Shown: positions 13,428 through 50,666 of the stretch, piece after piece
Position numbering within the stretch: position 1 is the first letter of the stretch
Layout of the letters: each line of letters starts with the position of its first letter
Assembly (NCBI GenBank): GCA_963699835.1
Contig: CAVOVJ010000012.1
Span: 33,744-97,743, forward strand
Direction: 5' to 3'
DNA length: 64,000 bases
Source: an uncultured Gammaproteobacteria bacterium
GTDB lineage: Bacteria; Pseudomonadota; Gammaproteobacteria; Steroidobacterales; BM003
Made by a program: the position numbers and the translations under genes
The notes under the pieces: model-generated
What the model saw: the letters and a program-made list of their open reading frames with translations, nothing else
What the model was told of the DNA's origin: nothing
The model's database searches: none

Positions 13428-13499
13428 CGGCTGCGATAGAATTGACGCCCGAGCTTGCAGGCTATTTTTTTGGCTTTATCTTCTGAGAGAAACTTATTC

Positions 13500-14053
13500 A
13501 TGAAAATTCGATTGATCTTTATCCTCGCGACCTGTGGATGGCTGGCAGCCGGCTGTCAGACCGTGCCTGTCGACGAACCAACAACGGGGCGGGTACGGCC
13601 ACGTCGGGATCGGCCGGCGCTGACGGTGCCCAGACCAGCGGCGTTGGCGATGATGGGGGTTTCTCGGGTTTGGATCTCGACGGCAGCCAGGCTGGTGGGA
13701 TCGGGATGCAGGGGGATCCGCTGCTCGAGACGAGGGTGATTCTTTTCGACTACGATAGCAGCGAGGTTCGCTCGGACTTCAATGATGTTCTGGCCGCACA
13801 TGCGGCCTATCTTGCGGCCAACCCCGATGTTCTGGTCCGTCTGGAAGGGCATGCCGATGAGCGTGGATCGCGTGAATACAACATCGGTCTCGGCGAGAGT
13901 CGTGCGCAGGCCGTGCGCCGCATACTGGTGTTGCAGGCCGTCAATTCATCACAGATCAGGACGGTCAGTTTTGGCGAGGAGCGTCCGGCCATGTTCGGTA
14001 CCAGTGAAGAAGCATGGGAGCGTAACCGTCGCGTCGAGATTGTCTACCCATGA
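13500..14053 (+). pseudogene. pal: peptidoglycan-associated lipoprotein Pal, frame broken by a 1-nt deficit in the G-runs near 13586-13593 (true lesion or sequence error)
   Basis: Lipoprotein signal MKIRLIFILATCGWLAAGC is in frame 3. The Gly/Ser linker and OmpA-like domain (VILFDYDSSEV...LEGHADERGSREYNIGLGESRA...NRRVEIVY) are in frame 2. Span is 554 nt = 3n-1. Confidence 0.85.
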
Positions 14054-14841
14054 GCTGGCACGATCGCAATCTCTCCGCACTGGCGGCGACCGTAGTGGCC
14101 GGCTTCCTGGTATCCGGTTGTACCACGATGGCGAGTACCCAGCCCGATCCGACCGAAGTGAAGGTGGCGGAGCTGGAGCAACGTGTCAATATGGTCGAAC
14201 GCAGGGTAGATAACGAATCGCTGATCCAGATGAACAGCGAGATCGCGAGCCTAGAGGAACAGGTGCGCGGACTGCGTGGAGTCGTCGAGCAACTGCAGTT
14301 CGAACTCGACTCTGCGCGGAAGCAGCAACGCGACCTCTATATGGACCTGGACGGCCGGATCCAGTCGCTCCAGGGTGGTTCCGGGTCTGCGGCGGCTGTG
14401 CCGGCTGCCGCTGCTGGTTCGGCGTCCGCGGCGGGCATCGCCGTTGCCGCCACAGCTTCTGAACAGGATGCGTATCAGGCGGCGTTCGAATTGCTGAAAC
14501 AGGGTCGATACGACGAGGCGGCCGGCGGGTTTCAGCGCTTTCTCGACGCCTATCCGCAAAGTAACCTGGCGGACAACGCGCATTACTGGTTTGCCGAGAC
14601 TTTCTACGTCACACGCAAGTTCGCTGAGGCTCGCGCGGCATTCCAGGTTGTCGTCGACAAGTTTCCGATGTCCAGGAAGATGGCCGATGCGCTGCTGAAA
14701 ATCGGCTTCTGTAATTACGAATTGCAACAATGGCAGGATGCGCGTAGCGCGTTGAATCGCGTCGTTGCGGAGTACCCTGACAGTACCGCCGCACGGCTTG
14801 CGAATCAGCGGCTGCAACGCATGAACAGCGAGGGTCATTGA
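14050..14841 (+). CDS. cpoB: cell division coordinator CpoB (YbgF), TPR protein
   Basis: Signal/lipobox-like N-terminus, coiled coil (VAELEQRVNMVERRV...LQFELDSARKQQRDLY), C-terminal TPR (YQAAFELLKQGRYDEAAGGFQRFLDAYPQS...). Confidence 0.9.
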   Translation: MSWHDRNLSALAATVVAGFLVSGCTTMASTQPDPTEVKVAELEQRVNMVERRVDNESLIQMNSEIASLEEQVRGLRGVVEQLQFELDSARKQQRDLYMDLDGRIQSLQGGSGSAAAVPAAAAGSASAAGIAVAATASEQDAYQAAFELLKQGRYDEAAGGFQRFLDAYPQSNLADNAHYWFAETFYVTRKFAEARAAFQVVVDKFPMSRKMADALLKIGFCNYELQQWQDARSALNRVVAEYPDSTAARLANQRLQRMNSEGH

Positions 14842-16250: not shown

Positions 16251-17324
16251 TCAGGAAAGCAGCCCGTCGTGCTGGTCTTGCGACCAGATCCGCCAGGTAA
16301 CCGCGGCGAGTAACGCGCCGACCGGCCCCAGAAGAATGCCAAAGTGGAGCAGCCCCTGGATCAGATCGCGCCGATCAAACAGCAAAAAAATCACTGCTAC
16401 GAGCAGTAATTGCAGCGCCCAGCCGGCCGCGGCGCTGCGCAGGGTTTCGCGACTCGGCCCTGCCAGCGTGCTGATAATCGCGCCGATCAGACCCCAGCAT
16501 AATGCAATCACCAGCGCTGCCACGCTGGTCGCGAGCGGCTCATAAGGCGGAAATTCACGTATTGCCGCATAGGCATAGGTCGTTGCATGGGTCGCGACGA
16601 ATCCGGCCGCCGCCGCGGCTGTCGCAACCTTAATCGCAACAGGCAGCAGATGGCGCACCGGTGCCGCCCAGTCATCCGCGTCATCGTTTTCGTCTGCTTC
16701 CGCCGCAGACTCATCCGCACCAGGTTCGGGCTCCGAATCCTCCTCGATCAAAATCGCCCGAGCGGATGTCTCCGGATCGACACTGCCCTGCGCCAGCAAG
16801 GCGTCGCGGCGCTCGTCGAGTTCTCGGGCAAGCCGCGCGCGATTGATTTCATTCAGTTGCGCTTCGATCCCGCGGACCAGTTGCTCCGTGTCGGGTCCGA
16901 AACCGACGTGGCTGATGCGGGCTCCATGGCGCCGTGCGAGCGCGCCCAGATCCTTGGGTAGTTCGTCTTCGCGCGGCGCATTTGCCCCTTCCACGAAAAC
17001 CGGAATGATAGGTATATTGCGCTTCAGTGCCGCGAGTATTTCCAGTCTCACATAGTCTTTCGGGTCGTCGAGTCGGCGCTGGCCCTTGGCGTCTTTTGCC
17101 GTTAGCCAGTCCGGACCGATCACGACCAGCATCAGGTCGCAGGCACTGACGGATTCCTCGATTTTCTCGACAAAATCGGTACCGAGCGGAATCGCATCGA
17201 TATCGAAAAAGATGTCTTTCTCATTGAATTTATCGCACAGCCGGTCATGGATGCGACCGGTTGCATGCGAGGCGTCCGCGCGTCGGTAGCTCAGAAAAAT
17301 GCGCCCACTCATCGTTGCGCCCAC
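16251..17324 (-). CDS. TIR domain protein with acidic linker and four C-terminal transmembrane helices
   Basis: N-terminal ~140 aa: IFLSYRRADASH..., DIFFDIDAIPLGTDF, CDLMLVVIGPDWL, conserved Glu in DYVRLEILAAL, IPIIPVFV (TIR_2-like pattern). Then EEDSEPEPGADESAAEADENDDADDW, then 4 hydrophobic helices. Start may be the ATG at 17312. Confidence 0.8.
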   Translation of the reverse strand: MGATMSGRIFLSYRRADASHATGRIHDRLCDKFNEKDIFFDIDAIPLGTDFVEKIEESVSACDLMLVVIGPDWLTAKDAKGQRRLDDPKDYVRLEILAALKRNIPIIPVFVEGANAPREDELPKDLGALARRHGARISHVGFGPDTEQLVRGIEAQLNEINRARLARELDERRDALLAQGSVDPETSARAILIEEDSEPEPGADESAAEADENDDADDWAAPVRHLLPVAIKVATAAAAAGFVATHATTYAYAAIREFPPYEPLATSVAALVIALCWGLIGAIISTLAGPSRETLRSAAAGWALQLLLVAVIFLLFDRRDLIQGLLHFGILLGPVGALLAAVTWRIWSQDQHDGLLS

Positions 17325-17770: not shown

Positions 17771-17846
17771 GGGCCGTTAGCTCAGTTGGTAGAGCAGCTG
17801 GCTTTTAACCAGTTGGTCGTAGGTTCGAATCCTACACGGCCCACCA
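17771..17846 (+). tRNA. tRNA-Lys (anticodon UUU)
   Basis: 76-nt cloverleaf folded by hand. Acceptor GGGCCGT/ACGGCCC, D arm GCTC/GAGC, anticodon stem GCTGG/CCAGT with loop CTTTTAA, T arm GTAGG-TTCGAAT-CCTAC, encoded CCA. Confidence 0.95.
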
Positions 17847-18937: not shown

Positions 18938-20098
18938 TCAGCCACAAAATTCCTCGTAATCCATGTAGCCGGGAAATTCGCCATGCCCCGAGCAATACCG
19001 GCAGCTCGGGTCGGGCCGGATACGATGGGTCGTAAACCGTGTCTGGAGCGCGTCGTAGTGGAGCAGCCGTGATGTCAGCGGGTCGCCGAGCCCAAGCAAC
19101 AACTTCAGCGTTTCCGTTGCCTGCAGCAGGCCGATGACCCCGGGTAGGACTCCCAGCACGCCAGCTTCGCCACAACTCGGGGCGAGTTCCGGCGGAGGCG
19201 GTTGCGGATAGAGGCAGCGATAGCAGGGAGTGGGTGCGCCCGGTTGCGCAGGCCAGAACACTGATGCCTGGCCTTCGAAGCGGAATACGGATCCATAAAC
19301 GTTCGGCAGCCCGAGTCGGACGCAAGCGTCGTTGATCAGATAGCGGGTAGGGAAATTGTCGCTCCCATCCACAATGACATCGTGACCCGCAAAGAGGTCC
19401 TCGACATTTTCGCTGACGAGTTTCTTGCCAACGGCATTGACCCGGACATCAGGATTGAGCGCCCTGAGACGTGCCCTTGCTGCTTCCGTTTTGGGTATCC
19501 CGGTGTTTGAGTCCGAATAAAGGACCTGGCGTTGCAGATTGCTGCGATCAACCACGTCGTGGTCGACCAGCGTCAGTGTGCCGACCCCGGCCGCAGCCAG
19601 GTACAGCGCGACCGGCGATCCCAATCCGCCGGCGCCGGCAATCAGGACGCGGCTGCGCAACAACGTGTTTTGCCCATCCAGTCCGATCTCCGGCAATAAC
19701 AGGTGGCGTGCGTAACGCTGACGCTCATTCGCGCCCAAGCTGACCGGGACATCGATGGGAAGTTGTTCGGATTTCCAGCGCAGGAATCCGCCCGCAACAG
19801 AACGAACGTCGCGGTATCCGACATTCAGCAGGTTGTCCGCTGCCAGCAGAGAGCGCACTCCGCTGTTACACAGCAGGAGAACGGTTGCATCGAGATCGGG
19901 CGCATGATCCTCGATATGGAGTTCGAGCCGATCGCGGTTCAGCAGTGCGGCCCCCGCAGGTATGCCCATGGCGGTTTCTTCCGCTGTGCGGATGTCGATC
20001 AGTACGGCGCCGCTGCTGTGCAAAGCCTTTGCTGCGGACGGAGAGACTTCGACAATCTTCTCTCTGAGGCGCGCCAGCGTGGTGTCCTTAAGGCTCAT
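18938..20098 (-). CDS. rhodanese::ThiF/MoeB-type adenylyltransferase (E1-like sulfurtransferase), rhodanese N-terminal
   Basis: N-terminal rhodanese with active-site loop LLLCNSGVRS. E1 core RYARHLLLPEIG...IAGAGGLGSPVALYLAAAGVG...DRSNLQRQ. Zinc pairs CYRC and CRYC. Start overlaps the upstream stop (ATGA). Confidence 0.85.
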   Translation of the reverse strand: MSLKDTTLARLREKIVEVSPSAAKALHSSGAVLIDIRTAEETAMGIPAGAALLNRDRLELHIEDHAPDLDATVLLLCNSGVRSLLAADNLLNVGYRDVRSVAGGFLRWKSEQLPIDVPVSLGANERQRYARHLLLPEIGLDGQNTLLRSRVLIAGAGGLGSPVALYLAAAGVGTLTLVDHDVVDRSNLQRQVLYSDSNTGIPKTEAARARLRALNPDVRVNAVGKKLVSENVEDLFAGHDVIVDGSDNFPTRYLINDACVRLGLPNVYGSVFRFEGQASVFWPAQPGAPTPCYRCLYPQPPPPELAPSCGEAGVLGVLPGVIGLLQATETLKLLLGLGDPLTSRLLHYDALQTRFTTHRIRPDPSCRYCSGHGEFPGYMDYEEFCG

Positions 20099-20379
20099 GA
20101 CCGGCCTCCCGCCACGGCTGGAATAATCGTTATGATATCCCCGTCAGCGAGCGCGGTTGCCAGCCCTTCGGCATCGCGGATATTTGTTTCGCCGACGAAC
20201 ATGTTCACATAGGTCCGGATCGCGCCGTTGTGATCGACAATGCGTTGGCCCAGGAGCGGAAACCTTTGCGATAGCAGCTCGATTACTGCTCCGACACTTG
20301 CGGCCTGCAAATCGAGTTCGGGCAGTCCGTCGGCAAACTCGCGCAGCGCCGCTGGAATTCGAAGAGTGACAGTTGTCAT
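20095..20379 (-). CDS. MoaD/ThiS-family ubiquitin-like sulfur carrier with C-terminal GG-RS extension
   Basis: 95 aa from MTTVTLRIPAALREF..., ends ...GDIITIIPAVAGGRS. ATGA overlaps on both sides. The longer ORF-track start at 20475 lies inside the JAMM gene and is rejected. Confidence 0.8.
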   Translation of the reverse strand: MTTVTLRIPAALREFADGLPELDLQAASVGAVIELLSQRFPLLGQRIVDHNGAIRTYVNMFVGETNIRDAEGLATALADGDIITIIPAVAGGRS

Positions 20380-20813
20380 TGGCTCAGGTTGTCCTCGATC
20401 ATTTTGCCATCCACGAAACGCCAGGCGGCAAAGTCCAACATACCGTCGCTGCCGGGCCCGGCGATCAGATAGCACCAGTCAGGCCAGGCGAGCTCACGAT
20501 CGGTTGCGGAGGGCAGTATCGGGCCATGTGGATGCGAATGCCAGACACCGATGACCTCCTCGTTACGCGTTCGCGCTTCGTTTTCGACGCGAAGAAAATC
20601 GAGCGGGTCGATCTCATAATAACTGCGCGGATCGTCGCGAGTGCAATTTTCAAGGGTGAGTACGGCGTTGACCGTGGCGCGCCCCGGGTGGCGCATGCCG
20701 AGCAGCAGGCCGCACGCTTCGTTTGGCTGCATTGCGGATACCGTTGACCCGATTGAGCGGCGCAGTGAGTCACGAAGGGTAATGGTTATCGATTCGAATC
20801 GGGTCGCTGTCAT
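20376..20813 (-). CDS. JAMM/MPN+ (Mov34) metalloprotease
   Basis: Complete JAMM signature: NEACGLLLG ... WHSHPHGPILPSATD (E, HxH, S-x2-D). 145 aa. Confidence 0.85.
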   Translation of the reverse strand: MTATRFESITITLRDSLRRSIGSTVSAMQPNEACGLLLGMRHPGRATVNAVLTLENCTRDDPRSYYEIDPLDFLRVENEARTRNEEVIGVWHSHPHGPILPSATDRELAWPDWCYLIAGPGSDGMLDFAAWRFVDGKMIEDNLSQ

Positions 20814-20832: not shown

Positions 20833-21585
20833 TCAACGGGTTACCACCGCAACGAGGGCAGACTCCCTGCGTCGCATGCTGGCAAGCACGACGCGATCGA
20901 AGCGCGTGGTCTGGTCGAGCGCAATTTCGGCAGCCTGTCGCGCCAGTTTCTCTATGGTTGCGTCGTCGACCATATTGATCAGCGGCACTACGGTCATCTC
21001 TCCGCAACCCTTTAACAGGCCGTCCGGGCTCGACAGCAGGCGCGCGACATGAACCGGGGCGATACGCTCGCCGGTCTCGAGACCGGTGATCCTGGCAGCC
21101 TGTTCAGTGCGGTGCACGATCGATTCGTCAAAGCCGCGTCCGATCGCGGCCGCTGAAACCACGGTCACAAGTGTGGTAGCGGAGGGCGGCAGGACCGGTT
21201 CGTGCTCGGCGGGCGCTTTTAGCAGGCGCATCCTGGCACCATCGGCCTTGACCAGGGTCAGGTCGAAGTCACCGAGACTGTGTATTTGCTCGATCATCCC
21301 GACTGGCACACCCGCATGGCGTCCCGGGCGGGTGCTCGGGGTCGCATAGCCGATTTTTTTCGCGTCACAGCCCGCGATCGCTGCGGTAAGCGCGGACGTC
21401 TCCGCAATGATCTCGTGCAGGCCGAGTGTGGCCGGGAAATACGTCGTGTGCGCACTCGCCGTCAGCGCGACCCGTCCCGGGTGTCGTTGCAGAAGACGGT
21501 AGAGCGTGCTCTTTTTGCCGCCCGCGCCGACTGCGCAGACGATGCCGCGGCGCGCCTCCAGCGCGTCGAGGAGATCGGGTTTCAA
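20833..21585 (-). CDS. YqeC-family protein (putative selenium-dependent Mo-hydroxylase accessory protein family)
   Basis: LLDALEARRGIVCAVGAGGKKSTLYRL P-loop-like N-terminus and ...LVKADGAR... typical of the YqeC family. TTG start overlaps the upstream stop (TTGA). Confidence 0.7.
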   Translation of the reverse strand: MKPDLLDALEARRGIVCAVGAGGKKSTLYRLLQRHPGRVALTASAHTTYFPATLGLHEIIAETSALTAAIAGCDAKKIGYATPSTRPGRHAGVPVGMIEQIHSLGDFDLTLVKADGARMRLLKAPAEHEPVLPPSATTLVTVVSAAAIGRGFDESIVHRTEQAARITGLETGERIAPVHVARLLSSPDGLLKGCGEMTVVPLINMVDDATIEKLARQAAEIALDQTTRFDRVVLASMRRRESALVAVVTR

Positions 21586-22745
21586 GCAGCGTCCCCGGCA
21601 TGCGCATCAAGTGCTTTTATGCTGAGTATTCTCGGCAGGTAACCGGCGGCAAGCTGCCAGTGATCGCCTTCGTCGCGGCTGACGAACACGTGTCCGCTGG
21701 ATGTTCCAAAATAGACGCCGCAGGGATCATTGTCGTCGCAATCGAGTGCCTCGCGAAGTACCGTGACATAGGCATGGCTCTGCGGCAGCCCCTGGTCAAG
21801 CGCCTGCCATAGCCTGCCACCATCGCGGCTGCGATAGATACGCAGCTTGCCGTCCACGGTCGTCCGCATGTGCGAACTCGATTCGGGAATCTGGAAAACA
21901 GTGTCTGCGTCGCGGCGGGAAACGCAAATCGCATAGCCGAAATCGCTTGGCAGCCCAGCGCTGATTTCCGTCCAGCCGAGGCCGCCATCGTCGCTACGAT
22001 AGGTGCCGTTGTAGCATTGCCGGTACAACCTGTCTGTGTTCATCGGATGCATCACGAGGCGGTGGATATTGTGACCTGATTGAGGATAGCGCCGCGGCAG
22101 GTTCTCTGCTCTCACTCCGTTGTTTGCCGGCTCCCAGGTCATGCCATTGTCGTTGCTACGGTATGCGCCACCAGCCGAAACCGCGGCATAAATTCTGCCG
22201 GGATTGTCCGCGGCAACGTAGACCGAGTGAACTGAAAACCCGCCACGCGCGGGCTCCCATGTTTCGCGGCTGGGGTGCTCGTTGAGACCGTTGAACGCTT
22301 GCCAGCTAAGCCCGTGATCAGTGCTCTGGAATAGTCCGGGTGGGTCGATGCCGGCCAATAGCCTGCCGTCGCGGCAGTGGGCGAGATACCAGATTCGTTT
22401 TAGCGGCGTATCGAACTTGCCCTGCGCATGATGAGGCGCCGTGGCCAGGGGTGACCAGGTCGCGCCGCGATCGCCGCTGCGGTAGACATGTGCGCCCCAG
22501 ATGGTATGACTCGCGGCCGCGTAAAGGGTATCGGGATCGTTGGCATCCGCGCAGGTGTGCAGAATTTCATAGCCGGCGATGTGCGGACCGTCGATTCCCC
22601 AGCCGGTACCTTTCGTCGGCGCGTGCAACCGGAACAGGCCCTTCCGCGTACCCACCAGCAGCATTACCGTACCCGGGGAAGCGGAGCGCGCTACCATGGG
22701 GCGCTCGGTCGTTGTCTGCCAAGCCGGTTCACGCTCAGGTTTCAA
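21582..22745 (-). CDS. BNR/Asp-box beta-propeller protein (sialidase-like fold), no signal peptide
   Basis: Six Asp-boxes: SGDRGATW, STDHGLSW, SNDNGMTW, SDDGGLGW, SRDGGRLW, SRDEGDHW. Start uncertain: TTG 22745, ATG 22697 or ATG 22664 (MLLVGTRKGLF). Confidence 0.75.
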   Translation of the reverse strand: MKPEREPAWQTTTERPMVARSASPGTVMLLVGTRKGLFRLHAPTKGTGWGIDGPHIAGYEILHTCADANDPDTLYAAASHTIWGAHVYRSGDRGATWSPLATAPHHAQGKFDTPLKRIWYLAHCRDGRLLAGIDPPGLFQSTDHGLSWQAFNGLNEHPSRETWEPARGGFSVHSVYVAADNPGRIYAAVSAGGAYRSNDNGMTWEPANNGVRAENLPRRYPQSGHNIHRLVMHPMNTDRLYRQCYNGTYRSDDGGLGWTEISAGLPSDFGYAICVSRRDADTVFQIPESSSHMRTTVDGKLRIYRSRDGGRLWQALDQGLPQSHAYVTVLREALDCDDNDPCGVYFGTSSGHVFVSRDEGDHWQLAAGYLPRILSIKALDAHAGDAA

Positions 22746-23250
22746 GCAGCCGTGGCATCAGTTCGACCAGGTTGCAGGGACGCGTGCGATAGTCGAGCTG
22801 GGCGCTAATGATCTCATCCCAGGCGGTCGCGCACGCGCCTCCTGAGCCAGGCACGCAGAAGACATAGGTGCCGTTCGCGACTCCGGCGAGCGCGCGCGAC
22901 TGAATCGTCGACGTGCGAATTTGTTGTAATGACACCGCCCGAAAAACCTCGCCGAAACCATCGATAATTTTATCTAGCAACGGGGCTACGGCTTCTGGTG
23001 TGCCGTCCCGGCCAGTGACCCCGGTGCCGCCGGTAGTGATCACAGCCTGTATGTCGGGTTCTGCAATCCATTGCGACAATGCCGCGCGCACCTGGTAGAT
23101 ATCGTCGGGTACGATTCGCTTGTCCGCACATTCGTGCCCGGCTGCGACGAGTCTTTCGACCAGCAGCTTGCCGGATTTGTCGGTGTCTTCGTTGCGCGAA
23201 TCCGACACTGTCAGAACGGCGATTTTCAGTGCAATGAATTCTCTGTTCAT
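22735..23250 (-). CDS. moaB: molybdenum cofactor biosynthesis protein B (MogA/MoaB family)
   Basis: IAVLTVSDSR...VITTGGTGVTGRDGTPEA...PGSGGA motifs. 171 aa. Confidence 0.9.
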   Translation of the reverse strand: MNREFIALKIAVLTVSDSRNEDTDKSGKLLVERLVAAGHECADKRIVPDDIYQVRAALSQWIAEPDIQAVITTGGTGVTGRDGTPEAVAPLLDKIIDGFGEVFRAVSLQQIRTSTIQSRALAGVANGTYVFCVPGSGGACATAWDEIISAQLDYRTRPCNLVELMPRLLET

Positions 23251-23318: not shown

Positions 23319-24593
23319 TCAGACGAGCCCGGCGAAAGGTTGAACGGTGACTGTTGATCCGGCGGGCACGCGCTCTTGCTCGATCGGCAAGACGATAAAG
23401 CAATTCGCCTCGGCCATCGATCGCAGGACGCCAGCTCCCTGGTGGTCGGAGCCTCTCACGACGTAATGACCATCATTGGCCCGCGTCAGAATGCCACGCT
23501 GAAACTCGAGACGCCCTGCTTTCTTGCGCAGTCCTGTTTCGCAGACAGCCTTGATGTAGATCGGTGGATCGATTGCATCCAGACCCATCAACGCTTGCAG
23601 CGCCGGTTGAACCACTTGGTAGAATGTTGCCATAACCGATACCGGGTTGCCCGGCAGCCCGAAGAACAGTGCCTTGCCTACTCGGCCGAACGCGACCGGT
23701 CGCCCCGGTTTCATCGCGATTTTCCAAAAATCGACAGTGCCGACCCGGGCCAGCGTATCCGTGACGAAATCTGCCTCACCGACGGAGACGCCGCCGGACG
23801 TTATGATCGCATCGGCGACCTGCGACGCGTCGAGAAATGCCTGTTCGACATCTTCGCGCCGGTCGCGAATGACACCCATGTCCAGCACCGGCAACCCGAT
23901 GCGCTTGAGCATGCCGAACAGCGTGTACCGGTTGCTGTCGTAAATCTGGCCATCCTCCAGTGTCTCGCCGATCCCGCGCAACTCGTCGCCGGTTGAGAAA
24001 AACGCGATGACCGGCAGACGTCTTACCCTGACTTCGCCGATGCCGAGCGACGCGATCAGGCCGAGGTGGGCGGAGCGCAATCGAGACCCGGCAGCAAGGG
24101 CGACATCTCCGGCGCTGATATCCTCGCCGGCGGGACGCACATGCTGACCGACCTTGTTGTCCGGCCCAATAGTGGCGCTGTCGCCCTCGCGGATCACATG
24201 CTCCTGGATGACGACGGTATCGCAGCCGGCGGGTAACGGTGCCCCTGTCATGATGCGCACGCACTGACCCGGCGCCACGGCCCCGGCAAACGGCCGTCCC
24301 GCCCATGCCGTACCCATCACGGTATAGCTGCGGGCACGGTCCTGTGGCAGGTCGCTACCGGCAAGCGCGTAACCGTCCATTGCCGAATTGGTGTGTGGAG
24401 GTACATCTACCGTCGAGACGACGTCTTGCGCGAGCACCCGGCCAAGCGCGCTGCGCAAGGCAAGTGTCTCGGCTCCCGCTACGGGAGTGATCGAAGCGCG
24501 AATACGCGCGACGGCATCATCCAGAGACAGCGCTTCGCTGTCGTGCGGATCCATGCAGCTCGGCGCATGAATCCCGGTTTCGGCGCGGCTCAT
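23319..24593 (-). CDS. moeA: molybdopterin molybdenumtransferase MoeA
   Basis: ...PHTNSAMDGYA..., ...ITSGGVSVGEADF..., FGLPGNPVS. 424 aa. Overlaps mobA by 4 nt. Confidence 0.95.
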   Translation of the reverse strand: MSRAETGIHAPSCMDPHDSEALSLDDAVARIRASITPVAGAETLALRSALGRVLAQDVVSTVDVPPHTNSAMDGYALAGSDLPQDRARSYTVMGTAWAGRPFAGAVAPGQCVRIMTGAPLPAGCDTVVIQEHVIREGDSATIGPDNKVGQHVRPAGEDISAGDVALAAGSRLRSAHLGLIASLGIGEVRVRRLPVIAFFSTGDELRGIGETLEDGQIYDSNRYTLFGMLKRIGLPVLDMGVIRDRREDVEQAFLDASQVADAIITSGGVSVGEADFVTDTLARVGTVDFWKIAMKPGRPVAFGRVGKALFFGLPGNPVSVMATFYQVVQPALQALMGLDAIDPPIYIKAVCETGLRKKAGRLEFQRGILTRANDGHYVVRGSDHQGAGVLRSMAEANCFIVLPIEQERVPAGSTVTVQPFAGLV

Positions 24594-25220
24594 TTTCCGG
24601 TCTCCACTGTGTGCTGACGATCCGTGTCTGATTCACCCAGCCTTGGTTCGAGTGCTGCCACGTCCGCCGGTTCGTTTACGTTGAGGAAATTGTCCCGGCA
24701 ATCGCTGAAGTCGGCAAGCTCCATGGTCTGGTCGGCGTACCAACGATCAATTTTACGGCCCCCGCCACCGAGATAGGTCTCGAGGCTGACCAGCAGTGAC
24801 GTATTCAGTAGCGAGAATACCGGTTGCAGACGATCGCCGTCGTGGGCGACGCAGACCTCCGCGCCATTTCGCAGGTGCGCTTGCCACAACCGTTCGGCAA
24901 GATCGGCCACGATCAACGGCGAGTCACACGGGACTGTCAGGATATGAGTGGTCTGTGCCGCCCGCATTCCGCTCGCCATGCCGGCGAGGGGGCCGAGAAA
25001 TCCGTCCTCGTGGTCCGCAATTACCGGGTAGCCGAATTCGGAATAGCGCTCGCTATTGCGGTTCGCATTGATTGCGATCGTTGCAACCTGAGGTCGTAGC
25101 GCGCTGATCGTCCACTCGACCATCGGCCGCCCTTGCAATCGGAATGAGGCCTTTGTCGACACCCCCCATCCGACGTGCCTGGCCGCCCGCCAGAACGATA
25201 CCGGTGATCCGTGTTTGCAT
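24590..25220 (-). pseudogene. mobA: molybdenum cofactor guanylyltransferase MobA, frame broken by one extra base near 25130-25146 (true lesion or sequence error)
   Basis: MQTRITGIVLAGGQARRMGGVDKGLIP is in one frame, and LQGRPMVEWTISAL...INANRN...GPLAGM...VPCDSP is in another. Span is 631 nt = 3n+1. Confidence 0.85.
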
Positions 25221-25618: not shown

Positions 25619-27004
25619 GTGGGCGACGTGTCCATGCAACAAGAAAAGACCGAAAAACTGCGGCTTATGCATGCGTCGGTGCTCGTTCTCGGCGCCACAT
25701 TGCCACAACGGCGAAGACTGGTTGCGCCGCTGTCGCGCAGGCTCGGGCTGGTCGAATGTGCCGACGATGGCGATAGTGCCATCCCGTTGATGTCGCGGTG
25801 TCGCTTCGACTTTCTTCTCGTTTTCGAAAATGGTCACCGCCGCGACTGGCTGGACTGGATCGAGTCTCTGCGTCGCGACGGCGATTTCCGGCCGGTGATT
25901 CTGTGCAGTGACAAGCTCGACCGCCCCGCAGCGGCGGCCGCAATACGCACCGGGATCGTCGATCTGCTGTCCGTCGACTGTGTTGAAAGCGATGTCGTGG
26001 CGGCCATCGAGAGGATGCAGGAGAGAGCGGCGCGCGGGGCGACCGCGCCACCCATGCAGCGAATCGTCAGCAGGGACCCCCGGCCCGATTCGCTGATTGG
26101 CGACAGCGCCGCAATGCGTGAGGTGAAACGCCTGGTTGGCAGAATAGCTCCGTTACCGGCGACCGTTCTCATCGAAGGTGAGACCGGAACCGGAAAAGAG
26201 CTGGCAGCGCGTCTGCTGCACAGCCTGAGTGGCCGCAAGGGCGCGTTCGTTCCGGTTAACTGCGGCGCCATCTCGCCGGAGTTGCTGGAAAGCGAATTGT
26301 TCGGTCATAAGAAAGGCGCGTTTACCAACGCGCATCGGGTTCGCGAGGGTTTGTTCGTAGCCGCCCGCCAGGGCACGCTGTTTCTCGATGAAGTCAGCGA
26401 AATGCCGGTTGCGCTGGAAGTCAAGTTGCTGCGCGCGCTGGAGGAGGGTGCCATCCGGCCGGTGGGCGCGGACGCGGAAACTGCGGTCGACGTAAGGATC
26501 ATCGCGTCGACGCAGCACGATCTTCCGGAGCGCGTCCGGCAAGGCCGGTTTCGCGAGGACCTTTTTTACCGGCTCAATGTGATCAATATCAAGTTGCCGC
26601 CTTTGCGCGCTCGGCATGGCGATATTGAATTACTCGCGGAGTTTTTCATGCACTCGCTCGCAGTTGAACTCGGGTTGCCTGCGGTCGCCCTGGACAAGGC
26701 GACGTTCGAACTGCTGAAGGCGCATGACTGGCCCGGAAATGTTCGCGAATTGAAGAATGTTATCGAGCGTACGCTGATGCTCGGCGAGTTCCCGAGTGGT
26801 TCGATCGGTACGCGTCGACCGGCGGAACGGCTGGCCGTGCCGGAGTACCCGATCGACTGGACCCTCGAAGAGGTCAAATGCCATCACATGCGTCGAGTGC
26901 TGGAGTCAGCCGGCGGCAACAAGTCAGCGGCGGCGCGCCTGCTGGGAATTTCGCGAAAGACGCTGGAACGCAAACTAGGGGTGACGGATACCCCCGAAAT
27001 TTGA
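25619..27004 (+). CDS. sigma-54-dependent transcriptional activator (NtrC/Fis family) with degenerate receiver domain
   Basis: AAA+ core GETGTGKELAARLLH, ESELFGHKKGAFTNA, RIIASTQHDL, C-terminal Fis HTH AAARLLGISRKTLERKL. GTG start with GAGGA RBS. N-terminal domain lacks the usual acidic pocket. Confidence 0.9.
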   Translation: MGDVSMQQEKTEKLRLMHASVLVLGATLPQRRRLVAPLSRRLGLVECADDGDSAIPLMSRCRFDFLLVFENGHRRDWLDWIESLRRDGDFRPVILCSDKLDRPAAAAAIRTGIVDLLSVDCVESDVVAAIERMQERAARGATAPPMQRIVSRDPRPDSLIGDSAAMREVKRLVGRIAPLPATVLIEGETGTGKELAARLLHSLSGRKGAFVPVNCGAISPELLESELFGHKKGAFTNAHRVREGLFVAARQGTLFLDEVSEMPVALEVKLLRALEEGAIRPVGADAETAVDVRIIASTQHDLPERVRQGRFREDLFYRLNVINIKLPPLRARHGDIELLAEFFMHSLAVELGLPAVALDKATFELLKAHDWPGNVRELKNVIERTLMLGEFPSGSIGTRRPAERLAVPEYPIDWTLEEVKCHHMRRVLESAGGNKSAAARLLGISRKTLERKLGVTDTPEI

Positions 27005-27063: not shown

Positions 27064-27297
27064 ATGAACGACAATGGCGACGGAAAACGCGGCGGAGGCC
27101 TCAACACCGACCTGCGAAAATTCTTGAAAACGGTCGGTATTTCCTCACAACGCAAAATAGAGGAGGCGGTTACCGCCGCGCTGCAATCCGGAACGCTCGA
27201 TGCGGACAGCCCGGTCCGCGTGCGCATGACTCTGGAGTTGCCCGGTCTTGGTGTCACACACGTGGTCGAGCAGGATCTGTCCTCCGGGGCCGACTAA
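27064..27297 (+). CDS. small conserved hypothetical protein (77 aa)
   Basis: AGGAG RBS 8 nt upstream of ATG. LRKFLKTVGISSQRKIEEAV... resembles a small DUF family, but I cannot name it with certainty. Confidence 0.5.
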   Translation: MNDNGDGKRGGGLNTDLRKFLKTVGISSQRKIEEAVTAALQSGTLDADSPVRVRMTLELPGLGVTHVVEQDLSSGAD

Positions 27298-27354: not shown

Positions 27355-28491
27355 TCAGGCCGGCCAGATCAGCTTGCCGGCTTCGCTGAGATCATAGCCA
27401 CCGAGCATCCGCGCGTGGGACTGGCAGTCTTTGCCGCGGATGTGTTCGAGCAACGACTGAAACAGCGTTCTGAAGAAGATGCCGCGGTGCATGGCCAGGT
27501 CGAAAGCCTCCCAGCCGATCGGCAGAAAGTCCAGCCCGTACTCGGTGGCTGACGCGCGCACACCGACAGTGACGTTTGCGTAGCCCATCGCAATCAGCGA
27601 TGCGGCGTCGCGCTCGGAAAAGGCATGGGTGGCGATTCTGCGCGACGCCAGATCGAGATCGTATTGCGACACCAGTTCCTGCAGAAATCGTTGCGATCCG
27701 GTTCCCTGTTCGTGGGCAACCCAGCGCGTTTCGCTGGAAAACAGCCGTTGCAGCGACGCGCCGCTATTCCACACGCCCGGCGTCAAAATCAGTCCCTGCT
27801 CGCGCCGGAAAAGACGCACCAGCAGCCAGTCATTATGCTGCGGGTATTGTCGTATCAACGCGGGATGGCGCTGGTGACTTTCTTCTGCAGGGCCCCAGCT
27901 CATTCCGCACAGGTCCGCGCGCCTTCGCGCCAGCAAGGTCAACCCGAGCTGGGTCACGGTTGGAGTGAAGCTGATCAGCGCGCTGGCCTGAAACTCATTG
28001 GCGGTCCGAACAATCGCCCGGTAAAGCAAGGGATCGTCCGATCCTGCGATCAGCATCCGATCGGTGAGCAGACCACCGTGACAGGACTCAAGAATCCACT
28101 GATCGACGAGGTCTTTTGGGAATAGCCATTTCCCTGTGATTTTACTCGCGGGGATCAGGCCATCGCCAACGAGCGCATAGACTTTTTTCTCGTTTATTTG
28201 CAGATAGTGGGCTACCTGTTTGACGCTCATGAACCTGGGAGTTTGCTCGGGATCGGTGTGTTTCGCCCCCGCCGCGGCGATATCGGTCGCCAGATTATCC
28301 ACATTCTGCCCCTCCCAGGTGACATGCCTGCCGCCGCGGCACTCACTGTAAACCGCATTCGGCCTCCCCTGGCGGCAAACGATGCAAAATTCGTTCCGCT
28401 CTGCGCACCGCGCATAACAGATTGAATAGAGTTCATTCGCTCGCGGCCGGGAGGAATCCACCTGCGCTACCGTTGCGACAAAATATCCCAC
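27355..28491 (-). CDS. HTH (excisionase/MerR-like) + periplasmic-binding-protein-like domain regulator (TunR/ModE-functional analogue?)
   Basis: MSVKQVAHYLQINEKKVYALVGDGLIPASKITGKWLFPKDLVDQWI HTH followed by a PBP-like domain. The 87-aa Cys-rich N-terminal extension is uncertain; alternative ATG at 28230. Confidence 0.7.
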   Translation of the reverse strand: MGYFVATVAQVDSSRPRANELYSICYARCAERNEFCIVCRQGRPNAVYSECRGGRHVTWEGQNVDNLATDIAAAGAKHTDPEQTPRFMSVKQVAHYLQINEKKVYALVGDGLIPASKITGKWLFPKDLVDQWILESCHGGLLTDRMLIAGSDDPLLYRAIVRTANEFQASALISFTPTVTQLGLTLLARRRADLCGMSWGPAEESHQRHPALIRQYPQHNDWLLVRLFRREQGLILTPGVWNSGASLQRLFSSETRWVAHEQGTGSQRFLQELVSQYDLDLASRRIATHAFSERDAASLIAMGYANVTVGVRASATEYGLDFLPIGWEAFDLAMHRGIFFRTLFQSLLEHIRGKDCQSHARMLGGYDLSEAGKLIWPA

Positions 28492-28670
28492 TGCTGGTTC
28501 ATATGGGAGTTTTTGTCCCAGTCTCTTATCAATTTCAGCAACGCTTGGGTCCGTCTCTGTCAGTCTCCTGAATTTTGTCTAACAGTCGTGTTCAATTGCG
28601 GTACAGTACGGGGCTTCCGGGTCATAGATGGCGGAGACAGGCCGGACGATTCGTTCGCCGGCGGTATTGG

Positions 28671-29156
28671 ATGAGCGCAGATTTGACGATACCGGTGTCG
28701 GTAATCATGCGACGCCGCGAAGTAGCCGGCCAAGGATGGTGCGTGCCCAGCTGGGACGCCATCGGTGTCATTGCCGGAGAGAATCTCGGGTCCGGCGAGC
28801 CGTCGCGCCAGCTGCTGCGGGATGGGCCAGACGAGCAACAGTATCTGTGGAGTGGATACCGCCTGCGGTTCTTCCGCGATGCCTGCGAGAGCTACTGGTG
28901 TAATCTCACTGTCGATCAGCCGAGGTTGTTCGTCGTGTGCAGGCCGGGCGAGGAGGGCGGCGATCTGGAGCCTTTTATCATTACGGCCGACCAGGACGAG
29001 GCCGGGTCTGCCGTGGAGACGGATGACCAGGTTTTTGCGGTAAATATGCCGCCGCAGATTTATCATCATCTCGAGCGCTACGTCGTCGAGAACTATGAGC
29101 CGCAGCCGAAGAGAAAGCGGAAGCGAAAGAACTGGTCGGAGCGGCCGCCGTCATGA
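28671..29156 (+). CDS. DUF3305-family protein (formate dehydrogenase-region accessory)
   Basis: MSADLTIPVSVIMRRR...YRLRFFRDACESYWCNL... pattern. Overlaps the next gene by 4 nt. ATG at 28671 preferred over the ORF-track 28575. Confidence 0.65.
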   Translation: MSADLTIPVSVIMRRREVAGQGWCVPSWDAIGVIAGENLGSGEPSRQLLRDGPDEQQYLWSGYRLRFFRDACESYWCNLTVDQPRLFVVCRPGEEGGDLEPFIITADQDEAGSAVETDDQVFAVNMPPQIYHHLERYVVENYEPQPKRKRKRKNWSERPPS

Positions 29157-29725
29157 GCGAAAAGATTTCCAACCGCACCATGCCACCGGGTAGCGATGAG
29201 GAAGGGTTTCTCAGTCGCTGGTCGCGTCTGAAAAACGCGGAACGAAAAGGTGTGGTCATTGACTCCGAGCAGGATTCGTTGCCGGTACCGGCGACGGCGG
29301 AGGAGGTAATCACCGGCGCTGCCGAGGAGCCGCCGCTGACCGATGCCGATATGCCGCCGCTCGATTCGCTGACCGGCGATTCCGATATCAGCGGGTTTTT
29401 GTCGCAAGGTGTCAGCCACGGTTTGCGCCGCGCTGCTCTGCGCAAACTGTTTCATAGTCCCAAATTCAACGTCTGCGATGGTCTCGATGACTACTGCGAC
29501 GACTTCCGGAATTTTGCCCCGCTCGGCTCGACCATTACAGCCGATATGCGTCATCACATGGAGCGGCTCCTAAAAGAGCGCCTGGCGGAAACCGGCGAAG
29601 CAGAAGATCCGGTCAGCGCGCACGAGCCTGCGGTTGACCCGGAGCTCGCGGCCGCGGGAGCCACCGGTGATCCGGATACCCAGGCGGTGTTTGACGAAGA
29701 TGAAGCAGGCAAAGGTGAAGGATGA
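29153..29725 (+). CDS. DUF3306-family protein
   Basis: ...EEGFLSRWSRLK... N-terminus, acidic middle, conserved C-terminal ...FNVCDGLDDYCDDF. 4-nt overlaps on both sides. Confidence 0.6.
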   Translation: MSEKISNRTMPPGSDEEGFLSRWSRLKNAERKGVVIDSEQDSLPVPATAEEVITGAAEEPPLTDADMPPLDSLTGDSDISGFLSQGVSHGLRRAALRKLFHSPKFNVCDGLDDYCDDFRNFAPLGSTITADMRHHMERLLKERLAETGEAEDPVSAHEPAVDPELAAAGATGDPDTQAVFDEDEAGKGEG

Positions 29726-31386
29726 CGGAACAAACGTCTGGCTTCCCGGCAAGGACAGGCAACGGTGCGGCGCGCGTCGTTGCGCTGGCCGAACGCAGCC
29801 GGGCAGAGGTAACACCGACCTCGATTGTGACTTTTCTCTCGCGCGGGCGGCTGCTGATAGTTGGCGCCGAGGACATCGCCGAACCTATCGCGAAAGAGCT
29901 TGCGGGCAGCCTGCACTGCGCTGTGCTGGCGCCGGCCGCGGAGGGAATCGTCGCGGTCAGTGAGCACGAGAACGTCCAGGTTGCGCGTTTCGACTCGCCG
30001 CAGGTCAGCGGCAGCCTTGGACAATTCGATGTGACCGTCGCAGTGGGCGGTCAGCGCAAGCCGTTGGTGGCATTGTTGCCGCGCGCGGGTGACTGTTTCG
30101 ATCTCGTGCTTGACCTCGGCGTGCCGCCGCTTCTCTCCCATGAGGTGCTTCCGCTCGGATACTACGCGCCGGGCGATGATCCTGGAGCGTTGCAGACCGT
30201 CCTCGCTACGTTGCCGGATATGCGCGGCGAATTCGAAAAACCCAAGTTCTTTGTCTATGACGCTGACATCTGTGCTCATGGCAGCAGCGGAATCGGCGGA
30301 TGTACCCGGTGCATTGATGCGTGCCCGACGCTTGCGATTTCTTCGCTGGGTGACACCGTCGAGGTCAATCCAAATCTGTGCCAGGGCGGTGGCAGTTGCG
30401 TATCCGCCTGCCCCAGCGGCGCCATGCGTTACGCCTATCCCAGCGTCAGCGACCTGCTCGCCTACATCAGAACGCTGATCCGGACCTACCGGGAGGCGGG
30501 CGGCGAAAACCCCTGCATCGTGTTTTATGATGAGACATCCGAGGCGGCGGTTGATGCGTGTTTGCGTAACGGGGGTAGTGAAAACCTGTTGCCGGTCCGG
30601 CTGGAGGAGATCGGTTCGGTCGGAATGGATGCATGGTTGACCTGCCTCGCCTACGGAGCGGGTTCCGTGGTGCTGGCAGTCAGTGCGGATACGCCGCCGC
30701 GGGTGCAGCGCGAACTTCGCGAGCAGGAGGGGTTTGTCAGACCGATAGTCGATGCCCTGGGATTTCAGGAAAACAGCCTGCTGCTGGTGTCGGCTGACGC
30801 TGAAGGAATGGCAATCCTGGGGCGCGAGCTGCCGGAGTCGCCCGTGTCGCGGCCGGCGGCATTCGCAGCCCCGGATGAGAAACGTACCCTGATTAGGCTT
30901 GCCATCGACCACCTCTCGGCACAGGCAGGCACTCAGCGCAAACAGGTCAAGCTGCCGGCGGGAGCGCCGTTTGGCGAAATTCGGGTAGACCGCGACGCCT
31001 GCACATTGTGCATGGGTTGTGTCGACGTCTGTCCGGTAAATGCGTTGCGCGATGGCGCCGGGTTGCCGCAGTTGAATTTTGCCGAGGCAAGTTGCGTGCA
31101 GTGCGGCCTGTGTGAAAAAGCCTGTCCCGAGCACGCTATCACCAGGGCGCCAAGATTCCTGTTTGATAGCGAGGCCAGACACAAGCCGCGAATCCTCAAT
31201 GAAGAGCAGCCCTTTTGTTGTGTTACCTGCGGCAAGCCTTTTGCGACCCGGTCCATGCTCGATGCCATGCAGAAGAAGCTCGAAGGGCACTGGATGTTTC
31301 AAACCGACGAGTCGCGGCGGCGGCTGCAGATGTGCGAGAACTGCCGCGTGAAAGACATGTTTTCCGGCGAGGCCGGGAACGCATGA
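29722..31386 (+). CDS. multi-cluster 4Fe-4S ferredoxin-domain protein
   Basis: Four cluster motifs: CTRCIDACP, CQGGGSCVSACP, CTLCMGCVDVCP, CVQCGLCEKACP. 554 aa. Confidence 0.8.
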   Translation: MTEQTSGFPARTGNGAARVVALAERSRAEVTPTSIVTFLSRGRLLIVGAEDIAEPIAKELAGSLHCAVLAPAAEGIVAVSEHENVQVARFDSPQVSGSLGQFDVTVAVGGQRKPLVALLPRAGDCFDLVLDLGVPPLLSHEVLPLGYYAPGDDPGALQTVLATLPDMRGEFEKPKFFVYDADICAHGSSGIGGCTRCIDACPTLAISSLGDTVEVNPNLCQGGGSCVSACPSGAMRYAYPSVSDLLAYIRTLIRTYREAGGENPCIVFYDETSEAAVDACLRNGGSENLLPVRLEEIGSVGMDAWLTCLAYGAGSVVLAVSADTPPRVQRELREQEGFVRPIVDALGFQENSLLLVSADAEGMAILGRELPESPVSRPAAFAAPDEKRTLIRLAIDHLSAQAGTQRKQVKLPAGAPFGEIRVDRDACTLCMGCVDVCPVNALRDGAGLPQLNFAEASCVQCGLCEKACPEHAITRAPRFLFDSEARHKPRILNEEQPFCCVTCGKPFATRSMLDAMQKKLEGHWMFQTDESRRRLQMCENCRVKDMFSGEAGNA

Positions 31387-31437: not shown

Positions 31438-31506
31438 TCACGCAAGATAATGGCACTTTAGGACGGAGTATTGGTTATTATTTATCCGTTTTTTCCTTTG
31501 AGACGT

Positions 31507-31522
31507 GGCCTGTTTTTTGCTT
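31507..31522 (+). promoter_or_regulatory. sigma-54 (-24/-12) promoter of the formate dehydrogenase operon
   Basis: TGGCCTGTTTTTTGCT versus consensus TGGCACG-N4-TTGCW. GG and GC are separated by exactly 10 nt. 31 nt upstream of the ATG at 31553, which has a GAGG RBS. Confidence 0.6.
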
Positions 31523-31552: not shown

Positions 31553-32215
31553 ATGACTGAAGTGTCATTTACAGATTCCGGATTTTCCGAACCGCATGCG
31601 GCGGTGGTGTCCGGCGAGGATCGGCTGAGGGCCAACACCTACAGCCTGTTGGGCGCGCTGCTCGCGGCGCCGCCCGGCGCCGCTCTGCTGGAGACACTGA
31701 GCGAAATTGATGCCGAAGAGGGCGAAGCCTCCAGTTTGCTCGCCGCCGCCTGGGGGATGCTCAAGGGTGCGGCGTCGCGGGCCGAAGGTGATTTGCTCGA
31801 CGACGAGTATCACGAGTTGTTCATCGGTGTGGGACGAGGCGAACTGGTCCCGTATGGATCCTGGTACCTGACCGGATTCCTAATGGAGCAGCCGCTTGCT
31901 CAATTGCGCTCGGATCTTGATGCGCTGGGACTCGGGCGCAAGAAGGACGTTGCAGAACCCGAGGATCATGCGGCGGCGCTGTGCGAGGCGATGTCACTCA
32001 TCGTGGCCTGTGCAGCGGAAAGCGATTCTCAACTCCAGGCAGAATTCTTTACCCGGCACATCCAGCCCTGGATGGGCCGTTTTTTCAGAGATTTGCAGCA
32101 AGCCGAAGCGGCGCGGTTTTATCGCGCGGTCGGCCAGTTGGGCGAGCAGTTTATTGAGGTGGAATCGCAGTATCTCGCGATGGCCGCCCCGCGGCTCGAT
32201 GGCAGCCGGAATTAG
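31553..32215 (+). CDS. TorD/DmsD-family redox enzyme maturation chaperone
   Basis: ...DDEYHELFIGVGRGELVPYGSWYLTGF...EPEDHAAALCEAM... family pattern. 220 aa. Confidence 0.8.
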   Translation: MTEVSFTDSGFSEPHAAVVSGEDRLRANTYSLLGALLAAPPGAALLETLSEIDAEEGEASSLLAAAWGMLKGAASRAEGDLLDDEYHELFIGVGRGELVPYGSWYLTGFLMEQPLAQLRSDLDALGLGRKKDVAEPEDHAAALCEAMSLIVACAAESDSQLQAEFFTRHIQPWMGRFFRDLQQAEAARFYRAVGQLGEQFIEVESQYLAMAAPRLDGSRN

Positions 32216-32269
32216 TCGGGCTGAGTCGATTTGATAACCCAGAGTGTGTAGTTCGGGAGGAAGAGGGAA

Positions 32270-32479: not shown

Positions 32480-32540
32480 CGGATAACAGCAAACGCGAAG
32501 CATCACCAGAAATTTCCAGCACAATTTCGAGGGAACAGCG

Positions 32541-35423: not shown

Positions 35424-35436
35424 GAGGGTATCAACC

Positions 35437-48721: not shown

Positions 48722-50666
<1,945 letters not shown>

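Follow-up and report, generated by a model that had tools for sequence, protein, structure and literature searches.

YqeC, an Asp-box propeller and a ubiquitin-like protein in a molybdenum/tungsten-cofactor operon beside formate dehydrogenase genes

Introduction

What does a yqeC gene do beside a gene for an Asp-box (BNR) propeller, in the middle of a set of molybdenum-cofactor genes? The question comes from a stretch of 64,000 nucleotides (the window) from an uncultured Gammaproteobacteria bacterium (GenBank assembly GCA_963699835.1, contig CAVOVJ010000012.1, positions 33,744 to 97,743 of the forward strand). A preliminary description of the window had reported that the two genes are flanked by mobA-moeA-moaB on one side and, on the other, by genes for a JAMM protease, a ubiquitin-like protein (Ubl) and an E1 enzyme, and our domain matches bear this out. 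It had suggested that the set delivers a labile sulfur or selenium ligand to a molybdenum or tungsten (Mo/W) cofactor.

YqeC has lacked a function since 2008. The only role assigned to it, in the maturation of a selenium cofactor, was not borne out in the one knockout study: yqeC of C. difficile lies among cofactor genes, and its deletion had no phenotype in selenium-dependent purine use (PMC11448449). Earlier surveys had allowed for YqeC alone acting in selenium-independent processes.

In the gammaproteobacterial clade of the window, the propeller, YqeC, an optional JAMM, the Ubl and an optional E1 form a module within a late-stage Mo/W-cofactor operon. This operon usually adjoins a gene cluster for a Cys-type formate dehydrogenase exported by the twin-arginine translocation (Tat) pathway, with a TunR-like regulator and often a TupA-like transporter alongside. 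We are confident that propeller, Ubl and YqeC are a real module linked to the maturation of the cofactor and of formate dehydrogenase, and we believe that it probably supplies sulfur or assembly help to the formate dehydrogenase cofactor.

A coupled gene chain

The genes from mobA to the E1 gene form one coupled chain on the minus strand, with several overlaps of stop and start codons. In the direction of transcription they are as follows.

24590-25220, minus strand: mobA, guanylyltransferase (TIGR02665, 185 bits)
23319-24593, minus strand: moeA, metal insertase (NF007960, 562.8 bits)
22735-23250, minus strand: moaB, MogA-like molybdopterin adenylyltransferase family (TIGR02667, 264.9 bits)
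21582-22664 (longest open reading frame, ORF, to 22745), minus strand: Asp-box (BNR) propeller, 360 residues from M28 (Sortilin-Vps10 and BNR models)
20833-21585, minus strand: yqeC, 250 residues (TIGR03172 and PF19842)
20376-20813, minus strand: JAMM/MPN metalloprotease (Prok-JAB, 74.3 bits)
20095-20379, minus strand: ThiS/MoaD-like Ubl, 94 residues, C-terminus AVAGG-RS (PF02597, 45.5 bits)
18938-20098, minus strand: E1 adenylyltransferase (MoeB/ThiF) with an N-terminal rhodanese domain (PRK08762, 570 bits; ThiF, 275; Rhodanese, 41)

The junctions read ATGA between mobA and moeA, between JAMM and Ubl and between Ubl and E1, and TTGA between propeller and yqeC, the overlap that had already been noticed for these two co-oriented genes.

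Conservation of the arrangement

A scan with an alignment of the propeller, taking one genome per species, gave 80 loci (numbered L...). Simple ORF calling often took antisense ORFs in these GC-rich loci, so our counts rest on tblastn and on the gene calls of the collection itself. Most of the loci are from Gammaproteobacteria (Woeseiaceae, Steroidobacteraceae, Thioalkalivibrio and Ectothiorhodospiraceae, Acidiferrobacterales, and isolates of Lentisalinibacter), and a few metagenome-assembled genomes (MAGs) among them bear other taxon labels. The neighbourhood analysis that the preliminary description had called for thus finds the association in about 80 species-level genomes, and it is not unique to the source genome.

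YqeC is tightly coupled to the propeller throughout this clade. It lies directly behind the propeller in 77 of the 79 loci with room for it, and the projected gap between the two genes is between -8 and +31 nt in 76 of 78. The propeller gene is immediately preceded by moaB in 58 of 77 loci, and the Ubl gene follows yqeC in 59 of 77; mobA was found in 58 loci and moeA in 63. A cluster of DUF3305, DUF3306, ferredoxin, TorD and formate dehydrogenase genes is within 10 kb in approximately 45 of the 80. Independent gene calls with Pfam labels confirmed the gene order. In many loci mobA is preceded by genes for an ABC transporter whose binding protein is of the PBP_like_2 (TupA-like) kind, and the additions downstream are moaA or a second formate dehydrogenase of the NAD type. 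No fusion of propeller and YqeC was found among the loci. Some loci lie in unrelated contexts, and their neighbours (dimethylglycine dehydrogenase/electron transfer flavoprotein, FimV, PrkA/SpoVR and tetratricopeptide-repeat proteins) gave no functional lead.

Compared with L003 and L004, which are close relatives, the mobA gene of the window has a 1-nt insertion near 25139 (window 25130-25145) that separates its N-terminal 27 codons (ATG at 25220) from the remainder. Either the frameshift is genuine or the assembly is wrong at this point. A second apparent frameshift, at 48647-50666, suggests indel errors in the assembly: an acetyl-CoA synthetase is split there into two overlapping ORFs on the plus strand (AMP-binding 48647-50125, AMP-binding_C 50067-50666), and an intact paralogue lies at 60245-62224.

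An old pair of propeller and Ubl

The propeller belongs to a large family, with approximately 590 clusters at 50% identity in an exhaustive search of cluster representatives (E at most 1e-30). One member has a crystal structure, PDB 3B7F (Reut_B4987), a structural-genomics entry from Cupriavidus that was named 'glycosyl hydrolase, BNR repeat' and whose function is listed as 'not known' in the one paper discussing it. From the alignment we reconstructed the sequence of 3B7F, and with it we scanned metagenome contigs. In this second clade, which shares fold and family with the window's propeller, an 86-residue ThiS-family ORF ending in ALSGG is directly behind the propeller in 53 of the 65 loci with downstream room, often overlapping it by 4 bp, and four more loci have GG with a short tail. 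Unlike in the window's clade, YqeC and cofactor genes are both absent around the 3B7F-type loci, which lie among gidAB, parB, a redoxin gene and the atp operon.

The third lineage is archaeal. Two fusion proteins (P0251 and P0303) carry an N-terminal ThiS domain ending in GG in front of the propeller, and the relatives of these fusions come from Thermoplasmatota. Elsewhere in archaea a ThiS gene is directly upstream of the propeller gene (three lookups, five places), and in one locus a ThiF gene and a gene with a ThiI domain are close to the ThiS-propeller pair. The propellers of the three lineages are approximately 35% identical to one another. Their Ubls match each other with E-values of 1e-11 to 1e-17, whereas the match to canonical MoaD is approximately 0.005, and by these sequence comparisons the propeller-linked Ubls form a family of their own, distinct from canonical MoaD. 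The window's Ubl belongs to this family, with E-values of 1e-11 to 7e-17 to the linked Ubls of the other lineages; it likewise falls outside canonical MoaD, with an E-value of about 0.005 and no adjacent moaE.

Propeller and a distinct ThiS/MoaD-like Ubl have therefore been inherited together across Bacteria and Archaea, sometimes as a single protein. Since the pair is adjacent in three lineages and fused in archaea, we read YqeC as a clade-specific insertion into an old propeller-Ubl pair. This turns around the earlier picture, in which propeller and YqeC together had been inserted between moaB and the Ubl genes. The role of the propeller had also been called completely open; by adjacency and fusion, the propeller is a dedicated partner of the Ubl.

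Some genomes have a canonical MoaD as well. In L005 a canonical moaD-moaE pair is 9 kb away, together with moaC, and L078-type genomes have moaD (its product ending in PPVSGG), moaE and moaB besides their set of JAMM, Ubl-E1, propeller and YqeC. In at least these two lineages the propeller-linked Ubl is thus an extra carrier.

Probable processing and activation of the Ubl

The JAMM motif E...HxHx7SxxD is intact in the window, where it reads E...HSHPx7SxxD. JAMM was undetected in 68 of the 80 loci, and in nearly all loci without it the Ubl ends in a free GG, the exceptions being L068 (GG-R) and L047 (where the Ubl match is disrupted). Where the Ubl has a tail (GGRS, GGRL, GGAS, or a longer one in L065) or is fused to the E1, a JAMM is present. 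Because its presence tracks Ubl tails and E1 fusions, we take JAMM for a processing enzyme, which in the window probably removes the RS tail and exposes the Gly-Gly end.

In four MAGs of Ectothiorhodospiraceae (L039, L054, L057 and L078) the Ubl, ending in GG, continues in frame through a linker into rhodanese and ThiF domains. The JAMM gene is beside this fusion, and the set is divergent from the propeller-YqeC genes. In L165 a bufferin-like set of BufA1, MbnB-TglH-ChrH and HvfC_N genes (12237-14268) is directly behind the Ubl and before an NAD-type formate dehydrogenase.

Ubl, JAMM and E1 resemble the sulfur-carrier systems CysO/Mec/MoeZ, QbsE/QbsD/QbsC, MoaD/MoeB and SAMP/UbaA in combining a Ubl of the ThiS fold that carries a Gly-Gly end with a JAMM protease to take off its tail and a rhodanese-E1. 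They differ in the sulfur acceptor encoded next to the Ubl, which in those systems is MoaE, ThiG, CysM or a similar enzyme and here would be a propeller, and in that the propeller-linked Ubls are a separate family.

Fold of the propeller

A cytoplasmic propeller with six Asp-boxes had been described from the start. The six motifs (S-x-D-x-G-x-x-W) are at residues 90, 141, 197, 251, 306 and 356. What we had to correct was the start codon: the TTG at 22745 falls inside the 3' end of moaB, and homologues and an independent gene call place the start at M28 ('MLLVGT', coordinate 22664). Read from there, the protein lacks a hydrophobic N-terminal segment and its homologues start straight at blade 1, so by sequence it appears to be cytoplasmic and without a signal peptide. 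The AlphaFold2 (AF2) model has a predicted local distance difference test score (pLDDT) of 85.7 and matches the seven-bladed 3B7F over the whole length, with template modelling (TM) scores of 0.86/0.90, 36% identity and a phmmer E of 3.5e-68. The model thus predicts a seven-bladed propeller with six Asp-boxes. Sialidase and GH74 glycoside hydrolases are distant fold matches (15-21% identity), the GH74 xyloglucanases at 15-20% identity and a TM of at most 0.6.

Five polar residues are invariant over the three lineages and the fusions: K8, H146, H201, Q216 and R304, counted from M28. Such a set would suit an anionic group, either a (thio)carboxylate or a phosphate. In the window's clade the propeller also has the motifs GVRAENLP, GHN(V/I)HR and RQCYNGTYRSDDG, the last containing an invariant Cys. 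Among the fold neighbours are the protein or peptide binders sortilin, Ycf48 and DAIP, the first two of which bind a C-terminal tail. One metagenomic member of the family (P0245, 704 residues) has a Ser/Thr protein kinase domain fused N-terminally to the propeller.

YqeC

The identification of the gene at 20833-21585 as yqeC holds, with full-length matches above cutoff to TIGR03172 (147.6 bits; cutoff 73.05) and PF19842 (96.4 bits; cutoff 27.6). The protein is 28% identical to YqeC of E. coli over 211 residues (E 7e-23), and the two have the motifs VGAGGK, ADGxR and LKAPxEHEP in common. In our alignment of YqeC proteins, GAGGKK(S/T), KADGAR and INMVD are invariant, the window's copy reading GAGGKKS. 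The AF2 model has a pLDDT of 94.7. Its nearest folds in the PDB are the G-domains of MeaB/IcmF and of SRP54/FtsY (TM approximately 0.44, E approximately 1e-4), and a search of PDB sequences with the YqeC profile found no solved relative. From the model, YqeC is predicted to be a P-loop NTPase of the SIMIBI class without a close solved relative; its Walker A motif (GAGGKKS) is deviant, and INMVD merely resembles NKxD. If the resemblance to MeaB/MMAA and the G-domain of IcmF (G3E/SIMIBI) extends to function, YqeC would also be a nucleotide-gated factor for cofactor hand-off, although the likeness is weak. We ruled out that YqeC is a homologue of MobB: the hhalign probability against E. coli MobB is 0.55%, with no profile similarity, and tblastn with MobB gave no matches in the window or in approximately 167 loci.

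YqeC of the selenium-dependent molybdenum hydroxylase trait is homologous, with GAGGK and (K/E)ADG(A/S)R in common, and in both settings the gene is among molybdenum-cofactor genes. In E. coli, yqeC shares an operon with yqeB, which bears the annotation XdhC-CoxI family, and the neighbouring mocA is transcribed divergently from them. The partner in the selenium trait is this XdhC-like YqeB, whereas here it is the propeller with the Ubl; no yqeB, selD or xdh is near the module. The client also appears to differ, being a formate dehydrogenase with the bis-pyranopterin guanine dinucleotide (bis-PGD) cofactor here and a hydroxylase with the molybdopterin cytosine dinucleotide (MCD) cofactor there.

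The formate dehydrogenase cluster and its missing maturation genes

Divergent from mobA is a run of genes that ends in the formate dehydrogenase.

25619-27004, plus strand: sigma-54-dependent activator, divergent from mobA and conserved in the supercluster
27064-27297, plus strand: DUF6494 small protein, conserved behind the activator
27355-28491, minus strand: regulator with HTH_17 and PBP_like domains
28575-31386, plus strand: DUF3305, DUF3306 and a 554-residue poly-[4Fe-4S] ferredoxin, accessory genes of the formate dehydrogenase cluster
31553-36030, plus strand: TorD/DmsD-like chaperone with the formate dehydrogenase alpha and beta genes
32541-35423, plus strand: formate dehydrogenase alpha subunit with a Tat signal, Cys-type, active site HQARICHSTTVAG
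35437-36030, plus strand: FDH3-type beta subunit (FDH3_beta, 337 bits against a cutoff of 240)

The Tat-exported Cys-type formate dehydrogenase is the probable client enzyme of the module. HTH_17 with PBP_like is the architecture of the tungstate-responsive TunR. The true start of this regulator is probably later than the 28491 end of the ORF, because its homologues have approximately 310-320 residues. An association of DUF3305/DUF3306 with fdh/dmsD loci was already known (PMC4464133). The sequence TGGCCTGTTTTTTGCT at 31506-31521 (plus strand) fits the sigma-54 -24/-12 consensus at 10 of 12 positions. This lone candidate lies immediately ahead of the genes for the TorD-like chaperone and the formate dehydrogenase, and no such site was found upstream of mobA.

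We scanned nearly all ORFs of approximately 130 residues or more in the window with Pfam and NCBIfam models, and none of yqeB, selD, xdh, fdhD, mobB, moaA, moaC and moaE was found. By tblastn, FdhD, FdhE, MobB and YqeB of E. coli had no match in the window or in approximately 167 loci; as a positive control, YqeC of E. coli matched 82 loci. The earlier statements that the window has no yqeB, selD or xdh-type hydroxylase, and a Cys-type formate dehydrogenase without fdhD, are both upheld by these searches. Across about 80 loci, two kinds of formate dehydrogenase occur without an adjoining fdhD. Within approximately 10 kb, neither yqeB nor selD was found at the 80 related loci. Nothing that we found supports the selenium part of the original suggestion.

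Proposed function

In the mechanism that we propose, JAMM would trim the RS tail of the Ubl, and the rhodanese-E1 would adenylate the exposed Gly-Gly end and convert it to a thiocarboxylate. The propeller may dock the flexible C-terminal tail of the Ubl at its conserved K/H/H/Q/R site, in the way that MoaE binds MoaD or that sortilin and Ycf48 bind C-terminal peptides. YqeC would serve as a nucleotide-gated chaperone in passing the sulfur to new W/Mo-bis-PGD assembled by MoaB, MoeA and MobA, and the TorD-like chaperone would then load the formate dehydrogenase. The likeliest destination of the sulfur would be the terminal sulfido ligand, which formate dehydrogenases require. The module would then do the job of FdhD plus IscS, and YqeC would play the part suspected for it with the XdhC-like YqeB in selenium-dependent hydroxylases, sulfur replacing selenium.

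That the module matures W/Mo-bis-PGD with sulfur from the Ubl is the best explanation we have for the whole, and we hold it tentatively. Within it, the sulfido ligand is the step that fits best, because fdhD is not near either kind of formate dehydrogenase in approximately 80 loci, some lineages have a separate MoaD/MoaE, and the usual partner of YqeC is XdhC-like; taken by itself, we regard this specific step as possible and no better than doubtful. A wider reading adds to an FdhD-independent route to the sulfido ligand the ideas that YqeC is a general nucleotide-gated factor for terminal chalcogens and that propeller and Ubl are an ancient new class of sulfur carrier and acceptor. In that full form it seems to us rather unlikely.

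The proposed role is like that of FdhD (with IscS) or XdhC, which install the terminal sulfido ligand and hand the cofactor to the enzyme, and the module is beside formate dehydrogenase genes that lack fdhD, a place in which one would expect a function of this kind. There is no relationship in sequence or fold, and the sulfur would come from a Ubl thiocarboxylate, not from the persulfide of a cysteine desulfurase. M. extorquens has a tungsten pathway that relies on MoeA1-MobB, MobA and FdhD, and the MoeA1-MobB platform is essential for its tungsten formate dehydrogenase (PMC13197769). In comparison, MobB and FdhD are missing from the neighbourhood of our module, and the propeller, YqeC and Ubl genes are in their place.

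Several observations weigh against our proposal. The contacts and the sulfur transfer are steps that we infer, the similarity of YqeC to G-proteins is weak (TM 0.44), and its NTPase activity is assumed. All of the gene absences are local to the flanks that we analysed, that of fdhD covering approximately 10 kb around the module. There are 14 propeller-YqeC loci without an adjacent Ubl; in eight of these DUF6505 is upstream, and in some moaC or moaD-moaE are 5-10 kb off. In 18 loci moaA is directly behind the Ubl, which equally fits a role early in the pathway. The propeller-Ubl pair also occurs away from cofactor genes, next to gidAB, parB and the atp operon in Burkholderiales-like loci and next to cysS and ribosomal genes in archaea, so the ancestral role of the pair may be broader than Mo/W cofactors.

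Alternative explanations

The simplest alternative is that the Ubl is the organism's MoaD and the E1 its MoeB, with propeller and YqeC either assisting or regulating dithiolene formation or replacing some accessory of MoaE. The Ubl is closest to the archaeal-type MoaD and SAMP1 models (below their cutoffs), the 570 bits of the E1 are to a MoeB model, no moaE or second moaD is visible in the window, and the 18 loci with moaA behind the Ubl count here as well. We still think it unlikely: L005 and the L078-type genomes have canonical moaD-moaE besides the module, the linked Ubls are far closer to one another than to canonical MoaD (1e-11 to 1e-17 against approximately 0.005), the pair is widespread away from cofactor genes, and its operon partners in the window are late-step genes (mobA, moeA, moaB) and not moaE. 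It could also be that YqeC and the propeller replace MobB, forming a platform with MoeA, MoaB and MobA for metal insertion or for the choice of tungsten over molybdenum, and that the link to the Ubl is secondary. This would suit their position directly behind moeA-moaB in an operon without mobB, the TunR-like regulator and TupA-like transporter in the cluster, the need for MoeA1-MobB in M. extorquens (PMC13197769), and the fact that in E. coli yqeC adjoins mocA as mobB adjoins mobA. With a YqeC-MobB hhalign probability of 0.55%, several propeller-YqeC loci that are not beside moeA, and the Ubl instead of MoeA as the partner of the propeller across lineages, we consider it quite unlikely.

Conjugation of the kind seen in sampylation, in which proteins would be tagged with the Ubl and freed of it by JAMM while the propeller serves as receptor or substrate adaptor, is improbable in our view. 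The rhodanese domain of the E1 is a hallmark of sulfur transfer, genes resembling E2 or E3 are not present, and JAMM was undetected in most loci (68 of 80) and tracks Ubl tails and fusions, which argues for processing. This reading would account for desampylase, SAMP1 and UbaA being the best NCBIfam matches for JAMM, Ubl and E1, respectively (none of them reaches its cutoff), for the binding of proteins or peptides by the Asp-box propellers Ycf48, sortilin and DAIP, and for the kinase-propeller fusion P0245. Finally, source annotations ('exo-alpha-sialidase', 'glycosyl hydrolase, BNR repeat'), the name that its depositors gave to 3B7F and the weak GH74 matches would make the propeller a glycoside hydrolase whose position is incidental. 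That is very improbable for a protein that appears to be cytoplasmic and has a Ubl as its obligate neighbour or fusion partner, and carbohydrate genes are not near any of approximately 170 loci; the GH74 matches are at 15-20% identity and a TM of at most 0.6, and 3B7F itself is listed as 'function not known'.

Novelty and significance

Sulfur-carrier sets of Ubl, JAMM and E1 are known already, as is YqeC. In the literature on YqeC, on DUF3305/DUF3306, on MoaD with BNR and on 3B7F we found no description of the module: not of the propeller as a conserved and sometimes fused partner of the Ubl, not of YqeC inserted into this pair, and not of the constant position of these genes within an operon for the formate dehydrogenase cofactor. 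The function of YqeC becomes directly testable here, because the setting is free of selenium, strictly conserved and has defined partners. A propeller family with a crystal structure but no function since 2007 gains a concrete partner, a dedicated ubiquitin-like sulfur carrier. If W/Mo formate dehydrogenases are indeed matured without FdhD, this would be a new branch of cofactor biosynthesis, and it would bear on the heterologous production of CO2-reducing formate dehydrogenases, for which cofactor maturation is a known bottleneck (PMC13197769, PMC13396061).

Other features of the loci

A DUF6505 gene (approximately 160-176 residues) is directly upstream of propeller-YqeC in L005, L009, L015, L017, L020-L022 and L030. 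These loci have no adjacent Ubl or cofactor operon. DUF6505 has no solved relative and no NCBIfam match, and it is absent from the window.

The window has a second molybdopterin oxidoreductase of 715 residues without a Tat signal (44838-46985, minus strand), which may be another client of the cofactor operon, and a multihaem cytochrome gene is near it (42035-43348). Downstream of the window's formate dehydrogenase is an ankyrin-repeat protein (37508-38383, plus strand). An ankyrin-repeat gene is also near moaC in L005 (17185-18363), with a related cluster in seven loci.

Just past the E1 gene is a tRNA-Lys(UUU) gene (17771-17846, plus strand). It is the sole Rfam match, and no Moco riboswitch or other RNA element was found. 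The gene next to it (16251-17324, minus strand) encodes a TIR-domain protein whose C-terminal half is hydrophobic and which has a weak likeness to a Thoeris ThcB4 model; the TIR gene is kept at the same position in L003 and L004.

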